Shown here in pieces: positions 41,373 to 50,428 of a stretch of 64,000 bases of DNA. The stretch lies in the IMG/VR virus record IMGVR_UViG_2897358383_000002; one strand, 5' to 3'. Under the pieces are notes generated by a model that was not told where the DNA came from, made no database searches, and saw only the letters and a list, made by a program, of their open reading frames with translations. A program made the translations under genes and the position numbers. This DNA comes from a virus (lineage: Duplodnaviria > Heunggongvirae > Uroviricota > Caudoviricetes). The first letter of the stretch is position 1. Each line of letters opens with the position of its first letter.

Positions 41373-42416
41373 TTAACCTATTGCTACTGGTTTTAACAAA
41401 CCAGCATCAAGTAGCTTGCGAGTTAACCACTGCTGGCCTTTACCCGTTAATTGGGGCGTCAGCCGTATCTGGTAGCCATTTTCATCATCCAGCACCACTT
41501 CTTTCACCGTGAAATACCCGGCGTTGATGTACTGTTGGCGCGGTACGTTTTTGCGCGCACCAAAAGCCATGAGAATGCCGTTCTGGCGCAACCATGAGAA
41601 AAGGGCGTTTTGCTTAAGTCCAACGACCTTTGCAAAGTTCCCGATCAGGATTCCATTGGCCGCTGATACCCGGTCGGCAAAATCGACTTTAGGGGCTGCG
41701 GCCACCAGCTGCTGTTCCAACTGCATTTTCTGTTCTGCCAACTCGGCAGCCAGGCGTAGAGCTTCTGGTAATGTTTGGGGGATCGATGGGGCAGGGGAGT
41801 TTGCCTGCTGCAATTCTTCCAGTTTGTCGATCAGCGAACGGCGGACCGCTTTTGACTCACGCGCGGCGACTCGCAAGGCTTGTTTGTAGGTCATGGTGAT
41901 GACCTCAAAAGAGCGCCCAGCCCTTGTGCCATGGGATTTTGCACTTTTTGTGTAAAATTCACCTTCAAGTTCATCGAGTATTTTTTCGATGAATTTATTG
42001 TTTCTAACCTCTGGTTCTCCACATAACTTGCGTGCCTCATTGACCATCTTCAACAATGTTTGGCTGTCGATTGTGTCTCCGGTGTTGGGGATGACATTCA
42101 CGGCTGGTGTTGGCGTAGCTGACGTAACAGGTGCTGGTTTCTCAACATTCAAATTTTTACCGGTCACTCTATGTGCCTCCTTTCTCATTTCTGCTGCCAC
42201 TGTTGCGTAACGTAGACGTCCTTGTTCAATCAAATAATCCCTGATCTCGGCTATCAGTAGCCTGTTGATCACAGCCTTATCTGTTCGGGTATAAAAACGT
42301 CTGGTTATCATGAAATAGTTAGCAATTGCGCCGGGGATCTCCCGTGTCGGCATACAGGCAGTATGCAAGGCGATCGCTTCGGCTATTTCATTACGGGTGA
42401 CGAGAGGTGTTTTCAT
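41373..42416 (-). CDS. ant: Antirepressor (Ant-like)
   Basis: 347 aa. Start ATG overlaps the stop of the upstream small ORF (ATGA), the arrangement described for P1 icd-ant. Confidence 0.75.
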   Translation of the reverse strand: MKTPLVTRNEIAEAIALHTACMPTREIPGAIANYFMITRRFYTRTDKAVINRLLIAEIRDYLIEQGRLRYATVAAEMRKEAHRVTGKNLNVEKPAPVTSATPTPAVNVIPNTGDTIDSQTLLKMVNEARKLCGEPEVRNNKFIEKILDELEGEFYTKSAKSHGTRAGRSFEVITMTYKQALRVAARESKAVRRSLIDKLEELQQANSPAPSIPQTLPEALRLAAELAEQKMQLEQQLVAAAPKVDFADRVSAANGILIGNFAKVVGLKQNALFSWLRQNGILMAFGARKNVPRQQYINAGYFTVKEVVLDDENGYQIRLTPQLTGKGQQWLTRKLLDAGLLKPVAIG

Positions 42417-42634: not shown

Positions 42635-42950
42635 AGTTACGGCCTCATTCGTAGGTTTAACAACCTGCGCCCCGCTGCTAAACGGGTGGCAGGACGTGAC
42701 GGGGTTAGCAGACTGGCACGAATGAAACCAGCAGGCCGAAGCCTCCCCATCACGCCCCACCATAATTCGGGCGTAACGTGGTTTTACGGACACAAAAATT
42801 CCGCAATATCGGATATCTGCGGTTGTCCGCATTCGTATTCAGGCTGCTAAACCCGGTCGCAGAATTTGCTACGACGGCGGAACTATAAGCCTGAACGATT
42901 AAAAGGTCAATATGATGCGAAAAGATAGCATTCGCGACTTAAAAATACAA

Positions 42951-42964
42951 ATTTATTAGAGCAT
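42951..42964 (-). promoter_or_regulatory. Late-promoter-like box (ATGCTCTAATAAAT)
   Basis: Same box. Lies upstream of the c4/icd/ant region on the reverse strand. Confidence 0.35.
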
Positions 42965-43061
42965 TATTTGTGCAATAAATGCACAAATGGATCTAATAAC
43001 CTCTTTTTTTTAAAGGCGAAAATATGTACCCTAAATGGGTTATAAGGCAGGTGAGATTATA

Positions 43062-43193
43062 ATGAGAAGACTATTACTACCGTTATTATTTATGGCCGGG
43101 ACTGTTAATGCAGCATCAAGCGTAAAGGAGATTTGTACCGATTATACGAAATACCTTGGGCACGTTTACGCCTTTGCGATCAATGACTATTAA
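43062..43193 (+). CDS. Small signal-peptide peptide (43 aa: MRRLLLPLLFMAGTVNA / ASSVKEICTDYTKYLGHVYAFAINDY)
   Basis: GGTGAG SD. Classic Sec signal peptide with AxA site. In the AT-rich islet. Confidence 0.35.
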   Translation: MRRLLLPLLFMAGTVNAASSVKEICTDYTKYLGHVYAFAINDY

Positions 43194-43214
43194 TCCATGC
43201 GTAGGAGTGGATTT

Positions 43215-43532
43215 ATGCTGATTCGTTTGTTTTTAGTGCTTTCCTTTTTAACATTTAATGTTTTTGCTGATGAAGTTGACTTTTCGAAGGTAGATTGCAA
43301 TTCAGTGGAAACAAGAAAAGCTCTTATTGAAGAATATAACGAAATATTATCGTCATATGGAATAACAGTGGTTGATTCTTATAATCAAAAAACTATTCAG
43401 AAAGGAATAAATAAACTGGTTTGTTATGGTGTTTACCAATATTCAGATGGCTCTTCGGAGTATGTTATTTATAAAGCATACCCAAATAGTCTTGGTGAAT
43501 TGATTAGTGAGTTTAAACCGATTAATGAGTGA
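43215..43532 (+). CDS. Secreted small protein (signal peptide, 2 Cys)
   Basis: ATG 43215 with GGAG SD. MLIRLFLVLSFLTFNVFA then DEVDF. AT-rich codon usage. Confidence 0.55.
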   Translation: MLIRLFLVLSFLTFNVFADEVDFSKVDCNSVETRKALIEEYNEILSSYGITVVDSYNQKTIQKGINKLVCYGVYQYSDGSSEYVIYKAYPNSLGELISEFKPINE

Positions 43533-43539
43533 ATGGAAA

Positions 43540-44319
43540 ATGAAATTATTTAATGTAATAACATTTTGTTGTGCTATTTTTGCTGGAAGCGCGATAGCTG
43601 ATAATAAATTGCCAGATTGGCTTTCTACTTCAAAAAAAGATTATGATTTAGTAAGGGTGTTCTATTTGTCTGGATTTGCCTCGAAAGCAATGAATAATCA
43701 ATTTGGTTATCATTTTCCATCTGAGTTGGTTAATGATTTTAAAGATAATGAATTTGCCGCTCAGGAAAAATGGAATACAATTTCAATTCTATATGGTGAA
43801 ATAAAATCCATAAGAATGGTGAATAATGAACCAATTGTAGAGTTATTTACTCCAGGGGAAAATGCAACGCCACTAAATTATATCAAATTGAAAGTGTTGG
43901 ATTCAAAACAAAACTCTCTGTTAAAACTAAAAAAAGGGGATGATATATATGCAGTGTGCTCCGGTGCTAATTTTAGGTTAGTGCCAATTCTGAGCAACTG
44001 CACTCCAGCAACTGACGTCATTGATGCTGCACTCTCTTTTTCTGGTGAATATATGTTCCCTGCTTTTGATTCTTTTTCACCTACTAAGCAAAACGTCAAA
44101 TATATATTCACAAATCAAGATCCTGTTCAGATGATGAATTTTATAGGGTACCTATCCTTAGTCGATACAACGAAGGATAAGAATAAAATGGATATGGTTC
44201 GTAAGTGTACGCCTTGGAAGCCGGAATGTTCACAACAATTCGTTGATGTAATGGAAGGATTTGATAACATCATGTATAAATATGAGAGGGAATTTAAAAA
44301 TTACATAGAATTAAAATAG
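43540..44319 (+). CDS. Secreted or periplasmic protein (signal peptide, 4 Cys)
   Basis: MKLFNVITFCCAIFAGSAIA then DNK. AT-rich. Track ORF starts 33 nt earlier. Confidence 0.55.
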   Translation: MKLFNVITFCCAIFAGSAIADNKLPDWLSTSKKDYDLVRVFYLSGFASKAMNNQFGYHFPSELVNDFKDNEFAAQEKWNTISILYGEIKSIRMVNNEPIVELFTPGENATPLNYIKLKVLDSKQNSLLKLKKGDDIYAVCSGANFRLVPILSNCTPATDVIDAALSFSGEYMFPAFDSFSPTKQNVKYIFTNQDPVQMMNFIGYLSLVDTTKDKNKMDMVRKCTPWKPECSQQFVDVMEGFDNIMYKYEREFKNYIELK

Positions 44320-44353
44320 TATTTGAAAGGATAGTCAATTTAAGTTTTAACAA

Positions 44354-44382
44354 AACGCCCATTAAAGGGCGTTTTATTGTTT
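44354..44382 (+). terminator. Rho-independent terminator
   Basis: AACGCCC-ATTAAA-GGGCGTT followed by TTATTGTTTT. Confidence 0.65.
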
Positions 44383-44542
44383 TACTCAAAACAACCTGAC
44401 TCAAAGCAACCTGATTGTGTGATAACCATATGATACTCCTCATTCCATCTACACTACCTACTCTAACTTAATGATACCATATTACTCCCGGACGGCAATA
44501 TTCCCACTCAATGAACAAATGACTACTCGTAGAATCGGTTAA

Positions 44543-45133
<591 letters not shown>

Positions 45134-46732: not shown

Positions 46733-49700
46733 ATGGAAAGAAAAAACGCCAATATTGACGATGTTATAAGGACAGTTGAAACCGCCAGCGCGAAAGAGCT
46801 GGAAGAGCTTGCAGGTATTCGGGAAGCTGTTGAAGATTTGAAAGGGGAACGAGTTGCAACTGTTGATCCTGTCTCTCGCAGTGTGTCGGCATTAAATCGC
46901 ACAATCGAAAATTCCCGGCCAGACTTTGTGGCCAATGCGCCATCAGTAGACCCTATTGTTGACGCAATGAAACGGCTTAATTTAGGGGACGTTTCTCGTA
47001 TACGGGAGGACAAAGTCACTAACCGTGAACAGCAGGTTGCACCAACAGCGCACAATCCCCCAAATAGACGAAGAGAGGCAATAACAGAGGATGTTAAAGC
47101 ACAGCGGTTAGAAACGGTCAAACTCGCTCGTGATTTGAGAGGGGGACGCGTTGCAACGGTTGACCCAGTATCTCGCAGTGTGTCGGCATTAAATCGAACA
47201 ATCGAAAATTCCCGGCCAGACTTTGTGGCCAATGCGCCATCAGTAGACCCTATTGTTGACGCAATGAAACGGCTTAATTTAGGGGACGTTTCTCGTGTAG
47301 TTCAGGAGGGCATTGCTCAAGAGGAACAGCAGGCCAAATCAACTACACCAAAGGGTAAAAAAAGACGCAGGAAGGCTATATCAGAGGATATAAAGGCACA
47401 ACGGACCGAAGCAGCCGAACACGCTCGCGAAATGTTCGATCAAAAAGGCGGTGCGCAAAAAAGCCAAAACCAACGCGATGCGCGTGGTCGTTTTATTGGA
47501 AAGTCAGGGAGTAAGGCCGCAGCGGAAGATGTCCGTGCTGAACGTGCTGAAAAGGCCAGGCGCAAAGAGGATGATGAGCGTCTAAATGCTGAATCAGGTT
47601 TATTAAAAAAACTGTCAAAAGTAGCTGAAGGCATAGGTAACCCTTCAGAGACTCGTGCCGTCGATGCGTTAGGTTATGCCGTTGCTGGTCCATTGTGGGC
47701 AGCAGGGAAGGAGCTTGGCGGGATATCAAAAGAAGTTGGTGGATCGCTTAATGGTGCCAGAAAGTCTATTGCCGATGTGATTCGTGGCAATGACGATAAC
47801 AGCCGTAGAAAAGGTTTTTTTAGGCGTAAATCGCAAAATAGTGCCGATGTCGTTCAGGTTAACACCCAAAAACGGACGGTTCAGGAACTTCAGGAGCAGA
47901 CCAGCGAAATTAAAGAGGGCAATGACAAGATTCTCAGCGCCCTTGATCAGATAGCCAAAAACACCGGGAAAAAGAAGGGCGGCTTGCTGTCCAAACTATT
48001 TAGCCTGTTAGGGAAGGGGGCCGGTGGTATTGCTTCCCTTATTTTTGGCCGTGGGGTACTAAAGAAAGTTGGCTCGATGGCACTAGGCGCTTTAGGTATA
48101 AAAAAAGTTGCAAGCTTATTGGGCTTTGGTGGGAAAAAAGCTGCTGCCAAAGAAGCTGGCGAATTGGCTACTCGCGGTGCCGGAAAACTTGCAACTAAGG
48201 GATTGGGGAAACTAGGTGTTAAGGCTCTTGCAAAGGGGGCTTTACGCGCAATTCCGCTAGTCGGCACGGTGGCTGGAGGTATCTATGATGCGGTAACCGG
48301 TTGGAATGATACAGAAGCACAACGTCGGACCTTTGGGCTTAAGGATGGGGAAGATCCATCTTTTCAGCAAAAAGCGGCTTATACACTGGCTAACGTTCTC
48401 GATATGGGAGGACTGGTATCTGGTATTAGCAGTGCCATTGGCGGCGTTCTCAAATCACTTGGATTTGAGGATATCGGCAATATGTTGCAATCATTTTCGA
48501 CGGAAAGTATTGCCCAGGCCATTGATAGTGGGATTACCAATTTAGAAACATATATTTCTAACCTTGGTGATACTATATCCACGACATTTAGTGATTATAC
48601 TGCAAAGATTGGTGATGCTATTTCAGCATGGTTCAGTGACACAACAAAGAACCTGAACGAAAAATTAGACGCCATCAAAAACTTCTTTACTGTCGATAAC
48701 CTGAAACAGGTTTTCAGTGATGCAATTGATAGTGCAATTGATTTCATTAAGAACCCAGGGAAATACATTAAAGAAGCTGGCAGTAATCTATGGAGTGCCG
48801 CAAAAGAGCTTTCAGGTGAGGTTGCAGATGCCGCTGTTCAGAGCACCCCTGTGGCCTGGGTTGCATCAAAGCTAGTCAACAAAGCGGATGCGAAAGAGGT
48901 TACACCTGAATTAAAAACACCAGCTAAAGAAAGTCAGGAGGACAATGCTCCTAAGACTGAATATACCCCTAAAAAGGCTAATATTGTCACTCGTGTTGTA
49001 AATGCATCCCTAGATACGGCGAAAGATAGCAATAAAACAGTTAAAGAAACTGCTAATCAGATTATCAATGCAAATGCCGTAGAAACGGGCAATAGCGCGT
49101 TGCAGAAAATTGATAAAGCTATTGGTCAAAATAGCTCGTCATCATCGTCGCTTAATACCACTGGCACCAGGAATGACATTCAGAAAGCTGCGGATACCTA
49201 CAACAATGGCAACTTGGATGTAAAAGTCGGAAGTCTTGGCGCTGAAGGTAAGGCAAATCTCGATAAGTTGGCTCCGTATTTTGCCGAACTAGAGAATAAA
49301 TACGGTCTTCCAGAAGGCACTCTTTACGCGATTGCTGCAACTGAATCTGGTGGTAATCCGTATGCAAAATCCCAAACCGGTGCTCTGGGGATGTTTCAGT
49401 TCACGGGGATTGCTCGTGAAGAGACTGGCTTAGCTGAAGGTGAATCGTTTGATCCTGTGAAATCGGCAGAAGCTGCGGCTCTTCTCATGAGCAAATATCT
49501 GAAGCAAGCCAATGGAGACTTAAACGAGGCCATCACTGCATATAATGCTGGGTTTGGCACTATCAATAAGTGGAAAAAAGGCACAGGTGACTTATCGAAA
49601 GAAAACCGTGAGTACGCGATCAAGGTCAATACTCATCGTGCTCGCTATTTAGGTGGTGAAATCTATACACCTGGAGCAGGAGCACAGGGTGGGGCGCAAT

Positions 49701-50428
49701 ATGGAGTGAGGGGACCACTGCCTGATAACGCTGTTATCGATCAGTCTACTGGCCTGGCGTTTACCCCTGGTGATAGCCCGTTTGAGAAAGGCGGTCTGGT
49801 AGACAAAATTGGCAATGCTGTTGGCGTTAACGATCTGGTCAACAAATTCATGAATGGCCGGGGTATGCGTCGGGAAGTCGTTCAGGGAACGCTCGAAGAA
49901 CGTGCACGAGGGAAGGGGACCGCAACAGCAGCTGGCAATGTGTATGTTGATACTCCGATGCCAGTTGAAGAGGCGCGTCCGGTGGCCAGCAACTCAAGTT
50001 ACTTTGACCAACTCGGCGCACAAATGGGGATTGATGGACTATTTGATAAACTCCGCAACTCGCCGGGGATGCGGAAAAATAATGCGCCTGAACCAGCCTC
50101 CACGTCCCAGGTGACGACTGCCGCCAACGATTTGCAGCAACCAACCGGTCGTATGCAGATAGACGGACAGGTTATTAGTGACCTTGGCGGCTCCGGTGCC
50201 AAGCCGACAATGCAGTTGGCTGATAATACCGTTTCACTTGATGGTGAAACGAAGCGGCTGTTTGCGCAGATGACCTCATTGCTTGCCAGGATTGAAGAGC
50301 ACACTAAAGACTCGGCGAAAGGCCAGGGAACTGTCGTAAAGGTCAGCACGCCTCAACCGGGCGTTATGCGCACGGTGCCACTGTCAATTGATGATCCGTT
50401 GATGAATGACTACGCGAGAGTTGATTGA
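46733..50428 (+). CDS. sit: Tail tape-measure / injection protein with lytic transglycosylase (SLT) domain (P1 Sit-like)
   Basis: 1231 aa. Gly-rich membrane-like segment and SLT motif AIAATESGGNPYAKSQTGALGMFQFT. Confidence 0.8.
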   Translation: MERKNANIDDVIRTVETASAKELEELAGIREAVEDLKGERVATVDPVSRSVSALNRTIENSRPDFVANAPSVDPIVDAMKRLNLGDVSRIREDKVTNREQQVAPTAHNPPNRRREAITEDVKAQRLETVKLARDLRGGRVATVDPVSRSVSALNRTIENSRPDFVANAPSVDPIVDAMKRLNLGDVSRVVQEGIAQEEQQAKSTTPKGKKRRRKAISEDIKAQRTEAAEHAREMFDQKGGAQKSQNQRDARGRFIGKSGSKAAAEDVRAERAEKARRKEDDERLNAESGLLKKLSKVAEGIGNPSETRAVDALGYAVAGPLWAAGKELGGISKEVGGSLNGARKSIADVIRGNDDNSRRKGFFRRKSQNSADVVQVNTQKRTVQELQEQTSEIKEGNDKILSALDQIAKNTGKKKGGLLSKLFSLLGKGAGGIASLIFGRGVLKKVGSMALGALGIKKVASLLGFGGKKAAAKEAGELATRGAGKLATKGLGKLGVKALAKGALRAIPLVGTVAGGIYDAVTGWNDTEAQRRTFGLKDGEDPSFQQKAAYTLANVLDMGGLVSGISSAIGGVLKSLGFEDIGNMLQSFSTESIAQAIDSGITNLETYISNLGDTISTTFSDYTAKIGDAISAWFSDTTKNLNEKLDAIKNFFTVDNLKQVFSDAIDSAIDFIKNPGKYIKEAGSNLWSAAKELSGEVADAAVQSTPVAWVASKLVNKADAKEVTPELKTPAKESQEDNAPKTEYTPKKANIVTRVVNASLDTAKDSNKTVKETANQIINANAVETGNSALQKIDKAIGQNSSSSSSLNTTGTRNDIQKAADTYNNGNLDVKVGSLGAEGKANLDKLAPYFAELENKYGLPEGTLYAIAATESGGNPYAKSQTGALGMFQFTGIAREETGLAEGESFDPVKSAEAAALLMSKYLKQANGDLNEAITAYNAGFGTINKWKKGTGDLSKENREYAIKVNTHRARYLGGEIYTPGAGAQGGAQYGVRGPLPDNAVIDQSTGLAFTPGDSPFEKGGLVDKIGNAVGVNDLVNKFMNGRGMRREVVQGTLEERARGKGTATAAGNVYVDTPMPVEEARPVASNSSYFDQLGAQMGIDGLFDKLRNSPGMRKNNAPEPASTSQVTTAANDLQQPTGRMQIDGQVISDLGGSGAKPTMQLADNTVSLDGETKRLFAQMTSLLARIEEHTKDSAKGQGTVVKVSTPQPGVMRTVPLSIDDPLMNDYARVD
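46846..47294 (+). repeat. Internal duplication in the tape-measure gene (two 150-bp near-identical segments, 300 bp apart)
   Basis: RVATVDPVSRSVSALNRTIENSRPDFVANAPSVDPIVDAMKRLNLGDVSR is encoded twice. Confidence 0.7.

Follow-up and report, generated by a model that had tools for sequence, protein, structure and literature searches.

Superinfection exclusion by Sim, historically termed 'superimmunity', has been known since 1982. The primary papers, by Devlin in 1982, Kliem and Dreiseikelmann in 1989, and Maillou and Dreiseikelmann in 1990, are said to describe exclusion by the cloned sim gene, with adsorption that is normal and transfection that succeeds; they reportedly also describe a SecA-dependent processing of the protein from 25 to 24 kDa that removes 20 residues. 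The exclusion of superinfecting phages by P1 is attributed to sim (PMC9177967), which may act by stopping these phages from injecting their DNA into the cytoplasm (PMC8546580). It is simC that is cited as the superinfection-exclusion gene of Maillou and Dreiseikelmann 1990 (PMC2409434), and experiments with CRISPRi indicate that plaques form without any need for simA, simB or simC (PMC10695390). P1-like phage-plasmids have eight regions that are low in GC and highly variable, simABC being one (PMC9603915); both the low GC content of the locus and its variability in these plasmids have been published, and it has been described as "recently acquired" (PMC9603915, PMC6906374).

It is informative to consider Sim alongside SieA of phage P22. 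Both are prophage-encoded and block the delivery of DNA after adsorption. SieA provides a model for how Sim may act on ejected proteins, and the mutations by which P22 escapes SieA map to its ejection proteins (PMC10883804). SieA sits in the inner membrane as an integral protein and obstructs the ejection-protein DNA conduit, whereas SimC is, by prediction, a soluble protein of the periplasm. We detected no sequence relationship between SieA and SimC, and the two share no PADLOC, Pfam or PDB family. Sim goes unmentioned in the P22 SieA paper and in a superinfection-exclusion review.

The locus described here lies in a window of 64,000 nucleotides, the whole stretch of DNA that was analysed. 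The initial annotation had correctly recognised the slot beside c4 as the position that sim occupies in P1, with which the P1 annotation is collinear, and it went on to describe unrecognised proteins standing where P1 has sim. The latter claim is refuted by comparison with P1, since the proteins are SimA, SimB and SimC themselves. Specifically, a megablast search of 42900-44500 against the phage collection aligned 42900-44399 with phage P1 (NC_005856 46706-48205) at 97.5% DNA identity and the sim locus with that of Escherichia phage vB_EcoM-673R5 at 99.8%. The megablast identity to the entry 'Bacteriophage P1 sim region' (M34382) is 96.7%, and across the locus the E. coli plasmid NZ_CP033882 matches at 100%. 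Over the 25 kb around the locus, identity is 96.4% with P1 and 99.8% with vB_EcoM-673R5. At the protein level, SimA matches its P1 counterpart at 49 of 52 residues (94%), SimB at 111 of 111 (100%), and SimC, without gaps, at 254 of 264 (96%); the 259-aa SimC frame is 'sim region ORF 2' of M34382. The P1 RefSeq annotation lists Oc4, PsimA, simA, simB, simC ('superimmunity'), LPsit, pmgC, tub, pmgB and sit, arranged and oriented as they are here, and the wider gene order is that of P1 as well (repL, kilA, ant, icd, c4, Oc4, sim, pmgC, tub, pmgB, sit). As in P1, sim lies between the Oc4/c4 immunity operon and pmgC (start at 44567) and is divergent from c4.

The window therefore shares locus, order, orientation and terminator with P1 simABC (NC_005856 46786-48070; M34382) and differs from it by 10 substitutions in SimC, three in SimA and small indels 3′ of the terminator. 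Given that DNA, proteins and synteny all match P1, these comparisons indicate that the islet is the P1 simA-simB-simC superinfection-exclusion operon, already known, and not cargo that has taken the place of sim; by the same reasoning from sequence, the window is a P1-like (Punavirus) phage-plasmid. The dN/dS ratio between the window and P1 is 0.18 for simC, and simB differs by no nonsynonymous and three synonymous changes, which argues that both are genuine genes under purifying selection and not chance ORFs; in simA the number of sites is too small to test for selection.

Features of the sim locus and its neighbours (positions in the window)
Feature	Coordinates	Strand	Basis and remarks
ant	41373..42416	-	
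C4 RNA	42682..42767	-	Rfam
a1b1 target element of C4 RNA	42836..42888	-	Rfam
Oc4, C1 repressor operator (AAATTTATTAGAGCATT)	42949..42965	none	P1 RefSeq annotation transferred; left edge of the variable slot
PsimA, predicted sigma-70 promoter (-35 TGCAAT, -10 TCTAAT)	42971..42997	+	P1 annotation only; weak consensus match
simA, 43 aa	43062..43193	+	ATG preceded by a Shine-Dalgarno sequence; P1 annotation 52 aa from 43035
simB, 105 aa	43215..43532	+	P1 annotation 111 aa from 43197
simC, sim gene proper, 259-aa precursor	43540..44319	+	P1 annotation 264 aa from 43525
Intrinsic terminator of the sim operon	44352..44385	+	Folding; kept in P1 and vB_EcoM-673R5
LPsit late promoter (-10 TAGAAT at 44530-44535)	44517..44535	+	Transferred from P1 and P7 annotations

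The features that had been read from the letters of the islet all hold. Its AT-richness is confirmed, the GC content of 42950-44400 being 32.8% and that of the whole window 47.0%, and 300-nt windows give 30-36% inside the islet and 45-52% in the flanks. The three rightward ORFs of 43, 105 and 259 aa are found as described at the ATGs 43062, 43215 and 43540, of which the first is preceded by the Shine-Dalgarno sequence AGGTGAG and the second by TAGGAGTG, both of them good; the longest plus-strand ORFs are 43035-43193 (52 aa), 43197-43532 (111 aa) and 43507-44319 (270 aa, with a GTG start). The P1 RefSeq starts of SimA (52 aa), SimB (111 aa) and SimC (264 aa) lie upstream of those used here, and the shorter forms place a positively charged n-region at the extreme N-terminus, as signal peptides should have. 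A strong terminator, placed by the initial annotation at 44354-44382, is also present: the stem spans 44352-44375 with nine pairs, five of them G-C, and is directly followed by the T-run TTTTATTGTTTT, with a folding energy of -14.6 kcal/mol (z = -3.75; none of 200 shuffles folds equally well). The opposite direction of transcription to c4/icd/ant is borne out as well, since ant, the C4 RNA and its a1b1 target element all lie on the minus strand. The generic promoter scan missed PsimA. Taken together, simABC would be transcribed divergently from c4-icd-ant, from just past Oc4 to its own terminator before the late tail operon. Beyond that terminator, at 44391-44480, there are short insertions relative to P1, among them a repeated CAACCTGA motif and some 25 extra bases; at ~44391-44480 these are common to the window and vB_EcoM-673R5 and not found in P1.

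All three proteins show the features of N-terminal Sec-type signal peptides in a heuristic test of n-, h- and c-regions, in agreement with what had been suggested, and their mature parts contain one, two and four Cys, respectively. Each N-terminus has one or more basic residues followed by a hydrophobic core (mean Kyte-Doolittle 2.7 over nine residues), and the same test predicts AXA-type cleavage sites at VNA/ASS in SimA, VFA/DEV in SimB and AIA/DNK in SimC. For SimC, the n-, h- and c-regions are present and processing is predicted at AIA/DN, after residue 20 of the 259-aa form, which agrees with the 20 residues reportedly removed and would leave DNKLPD at the start of the mature protein. The canonical lipobox [LVI][ASTVI][GAS]C, looked for directly in the sequences, is absent from SimA, SimB and SimC; F and C stand before the Cys10-Cys11 of SimC, where a lipobox would have G, A or S. 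In this the Sim proteins differ from exclusion proteins of the lipoprotein type (TraT, T5 Llp, Ltp), which have a lipobox. SimC carries a cleavable signal peptide only, and the prediction is of a soluble protein in the periplasm.

These features suggest a pathway in which SimC, made as a 259-aa precursor, would be Sec-exported, probably cleaved after AIA(20), and stabilised by disulfides in the periplasm. As the published phenotype and the proposed block at the injection step would have it, periplasmic SimC would then keep the DNA of an adsorbed superinfecting P1 out of the cytoplasm, and SimB may serve as an accessory periplasmic partner. We thus favour, with a probability of about 0.93, the explanation that the islet represents simABC, as an operon, in a P1-like phage-plasmid whose Sec-exported periplasmic SimC stops the DNA of superinfecting P1.

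It is also worth considering why these proteins looked unfamiliar. Scans of SimA, SimB and SimC against Pfam, NCBIfam and PADLOC gave no family above threshold, and for all three proteins PADLOC-DB returned no family at E <= 0.1. The remark that no family was recognised is thus accurate as far as these thresholds go, although the proteins can be identified as P1 SimABC; it reflects poor database labelling, in that most copies are called 'hypothetical protein' and there is no Pfam family. The matching PHROGs 3933, 14329 and 14355 (SimA being phrog_3933 and SimB phrog_14329) are all labelled 'unknown function', and the majority of database copies carry the name 'hypothetical protein'. Matches of SimB to TcpS, eut_hyp and fadh2 lie far below the cut-offs and are noise. 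SimC falls into four clusters in a word-indexed search of 5.8 billion proteins and, in a set of 1.84 billion representatives, has 14 matches at E <= 1e-3. No more than three of the 14 are near full length, at 83%, 39% and 28% identity. For SimB there are 12 clusters, and every one with a named source comes from E. coli or Enterobacteriaceae. By these searches, SimB and SimC form a tiny family that is confined to P1-like elements. One such element, a divergent P1-like contig (L007, GCA_005690115.1), has adjacent homologues of SimB (61%) and SimC (39%) in the same slot; a megablast of this slot against the phage collection found nothing. The adjacency of the pair, kept in so divergent an element, can be taken to argue that the two proteins work together.

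The structure of SimC offers some further hints. Residues ~62-154 align with the PF12869 'tRNA_anti-like' profile (positions 52-144 of 146), the window's own protein at 15.9 bits and E = 0.01 against a Pfam gathering cut-off of 23.5, and five of eight SimC-family members match this profile, the best at 2e-14. Structure prediction, which had been proposed as a check, gave an AF2 model of SimB with a pLDDT of 78 and one of SimC with an overall pLDDT of 58 (low confidence) that reaches 66-78 across the OB-like domain. The best compact match of the low-confidence SimC model in Foldseek is 3f1z (TM 0.62-0.64 normalised to 3f1z, rmsd 3.6-4.0); only this compact OB match was used, as support for the Pfam evidence from the relatives. 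Together, profile and model suggest that the central domain of SimC (~residues 60-155) is probably an OB fold of the PF12869 type. The putative fold would be that of exported OB proteins such as 3f1z, a putative nucleic-acid-binding lipoprotein of Klebsiella. SimC differs from the PF12869 proteins in that it scores below threshold, has extra N-terminal helices and a C-terminal part of ~100 residues that is predicted to be helical and contains CTPWKPEC, and is not a lipoprotein. A profile of the SimC family gave only chance-level matches against PDB sequences (E of at least 0.19), and among the literature matches listed none mentions PF12869 or the tRNA_anti-like domain. The SimB model shows a small alpha+beta protein with two Cys, in which one helix packs on a four-stranded sheet; Foldseek found no match for it in the PDB at E <= 0.05. 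Its helix-on-sheet topology, of the cystatin/NTF2-like kind, is generic and uninformative as a family assignment. By analogy with SieA, we speculate that the OB-like domain of SimC might bind some part of the conduit that carries DNA across the envelope, be it the ejected Sit or a host partner.

A comparison of this junction across P1-like genomes, another of the checks proposed at the outset, reveals a cargo hot spot with sharp edges and variable contents between Oc4 and LPsit (42965-44515). At the left edge, all compared elements are collinear through Oc4, with P7 diverging at ~42965 and the elements with a long simA at ~43205. At the right edge, the six compared elements are all identical again from ~44515, at LPsit, which belongs to the pmgC-tub-pmgB-sit operon and not to sim. 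At least 80% of the sim query is present in 136 of 484 matching plasmid records. Elsewhere the slot is filled differently. The slot of P7 (upf50.5/upf50.0) holds an outer-membrane lipoprotein and a DUF5384 protein, both with annotated signal peptides. The P7 lipoprotein weakly resembles TraT, the surface-exclusion lipoprotein of the F plasmid, at an E of 7e-5 that falls short of the cut-off. The slot of p1303_95 holds a 224-aa long SimA and a protein of 158 aa whose N-terminus is hydrophobic and resembles a signal peptide; a Pfam scan of the latter found no match, and its near-identical counterpart in the Logan contig L008 has a precomputed match to PF27224 YfjT. The slot of pRHB09-C18_2 encodes a 'simA domain protein' of 172 aa, a protein of 168 aa related to the 158-aa one, and a protein with an SH3 domain, and that of L008 a 107-aa protein, SimB, SimC (82%), a long SimA and the YfjT-like protein. 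The alternative cargo of P7, p1303_95 and pRHB09-C18_2 thus shares the boundaries and the orientation of the window's islet, whereas its proteins are unrelated to SimB and SimC, some having only the 5′ end of simA in common. Every alternative cargo examined consists of exported or membrane proteins.

In the window, simA, the first gene of the operon, encodes a signal peptide and a tail of 26 aa. The first ~45 residues of SimA, comprising the signal peptide and about 25 more, are identical to the N-terminus of a 'long SimA' of 172-224 aa in other P1-like plasmids (loci L003, 1636-2310; L004, 3136-3654; L007, 5059-5598; L008, 1876-2568). The nucleotide homology does not end at the stop codon of simA (TAA in the window, where the long form has GAA) but extends to 43205, and this stretch includes the ATG of the 111-aa SimB annotated in P1. 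Of the 213 positions in the phrog_3933 profile, SimA covers 1-41 and no others. These alignments suggest that the P1-type simA is probably what truncation has left of the 5′ end of a longer gene, and a vestige in this lineage. In the divergent contig L007, SimB and SimC follow a SimA of full length (179 aa), which shares 59% identity with that of p1303_95, and the simplest reading would be an ancestral operon of long simA, simB and simC from which most of simA was deleted in the P1 lineage.

Conversely, SimA (43 aa), SimB and SimC might all be functional subunits of one exclusion complex, with simA no vestige. The P1 annotation does call SimA and SimB a 'putative superimmunity accessory function', and simA retains its Shine-Dalgarno sequence, signal peptide and open frame, with differences from P1 at only three of 52 residues. 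Nonetheless, we consider this unlikely: what the gene encodes covers no more than the first 41 of 213 profile positions, versions of 172-224 aa exist with which homology runs through the stop to 43205, and the divergent element has a full-length SimA upstream of its SimB and SimC.

A second question is whether sim, at the single-copy dosage of a prophage, has mainly some other role at the envelope (protection late in infection, defence against other phages, or conjugation), the classical phenotype being an effect of overexpression. The phenotype was reportedly defined with multicopy clones. In addition, the predicted promoter PsimA is weak, sim is dispensable for plaque formation (PMC10695390), and most P1-like plasmids are without it, the full region being found in 136 of 484 flank-matching records. 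However, simB and simC are under purifying selection, the SimB-SimC pair is kept in a divergent lineage, and the alternative cargo of the slot is also exported, with the weakly TraT-like lipoprotein of P7 befitting a slot of an exclusion type; we therefore judge such a role to be very unlikely as the main one.

Finally, the notion of a novel exclusion, surface-modification or effector cargo made up of three unrecognised secreted proteins in the place of sim deserves next to no credence, for although it could draw on the lack of any Pfam, NCBIfam or PADLOC family, on the PHROGs label 'unknown function', on the many copies named 'hypothetical protein' and on the different cargo that does occupy the slot in other P1-like plasmids, the proteins are 94-100% identical to the annotated SimA, SimB and SimC of P1 at the same locus, so that of the original suggestion the guess of periplasmic exclusion stands, the genes being sim, and the novelty falls.

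With the islet read as the simABC operon, the finding itself adds nothing new, in that sim, its low GC content and its variability were already known. What it does provide are entry points to the mechanism of Sim: the OB-like domain of SimC, the conserved SimB-SimC pair, and the truncated simA, whose full-length relatives contain a segment that is Sit-like. Residues 131-177 of the long SimA of p1303_95 align with residues 1028-1070 of Sit at 49% identity over 47 aa (pairwise E = 7e-9), and the long SimA of pRHB09 aligns with Sit at 36% identity over 99 residues. The segment shared between long SimA and the C-terminal part of Sit reads GMR..V[Q/E]GTL..RA.G.G. The divergent lineage also has this similarity between SimA and Sit (L007 5059-5598 and L007 9007-12264), and a substitution within it follows the lineage, with VQGTL in both SimA and Sit of the P1-like elements and VEGTL in both proteins of L007. 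The Sit-like segment is confined to the long SimA of other elements and absent from the truncated simA of the window. When the window's SimA, SimB and SimC were searched by tblastn across the whole window, neither a paralogue nor any similarity to virion proteins came up.

We hesitate to build much on these alignments. One could imagine that long SimA is a secreted mimic of Sit, the injected tape-measure/transglycosylase, and that the slot excludes by competing for the periplasmic or inner-membrane partner of Sit, in which case SimB and SimC would have to exclude on their own where, as in P1 and the window, only a stub of simA is left. This idea is a tentative one that we regard as rather unlikely to be right; if it were true, it would offer a first molecular clue to what Sim targets.

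The sit gene of the window (46733-50428) has a peculiarity of its own. Near its 5′ end, at 46835-47404, lies a tandem duplication of 297 bp (1.9 copies, 82% matches), which gives a Sit of 1231 aa here as against 1140 aa in P1, where there is one copy. The duplication is common to the window, vB_EcoM-673R5 and phi456 and, as Sit is a putative tail ruler, it might alter the length of the tail.
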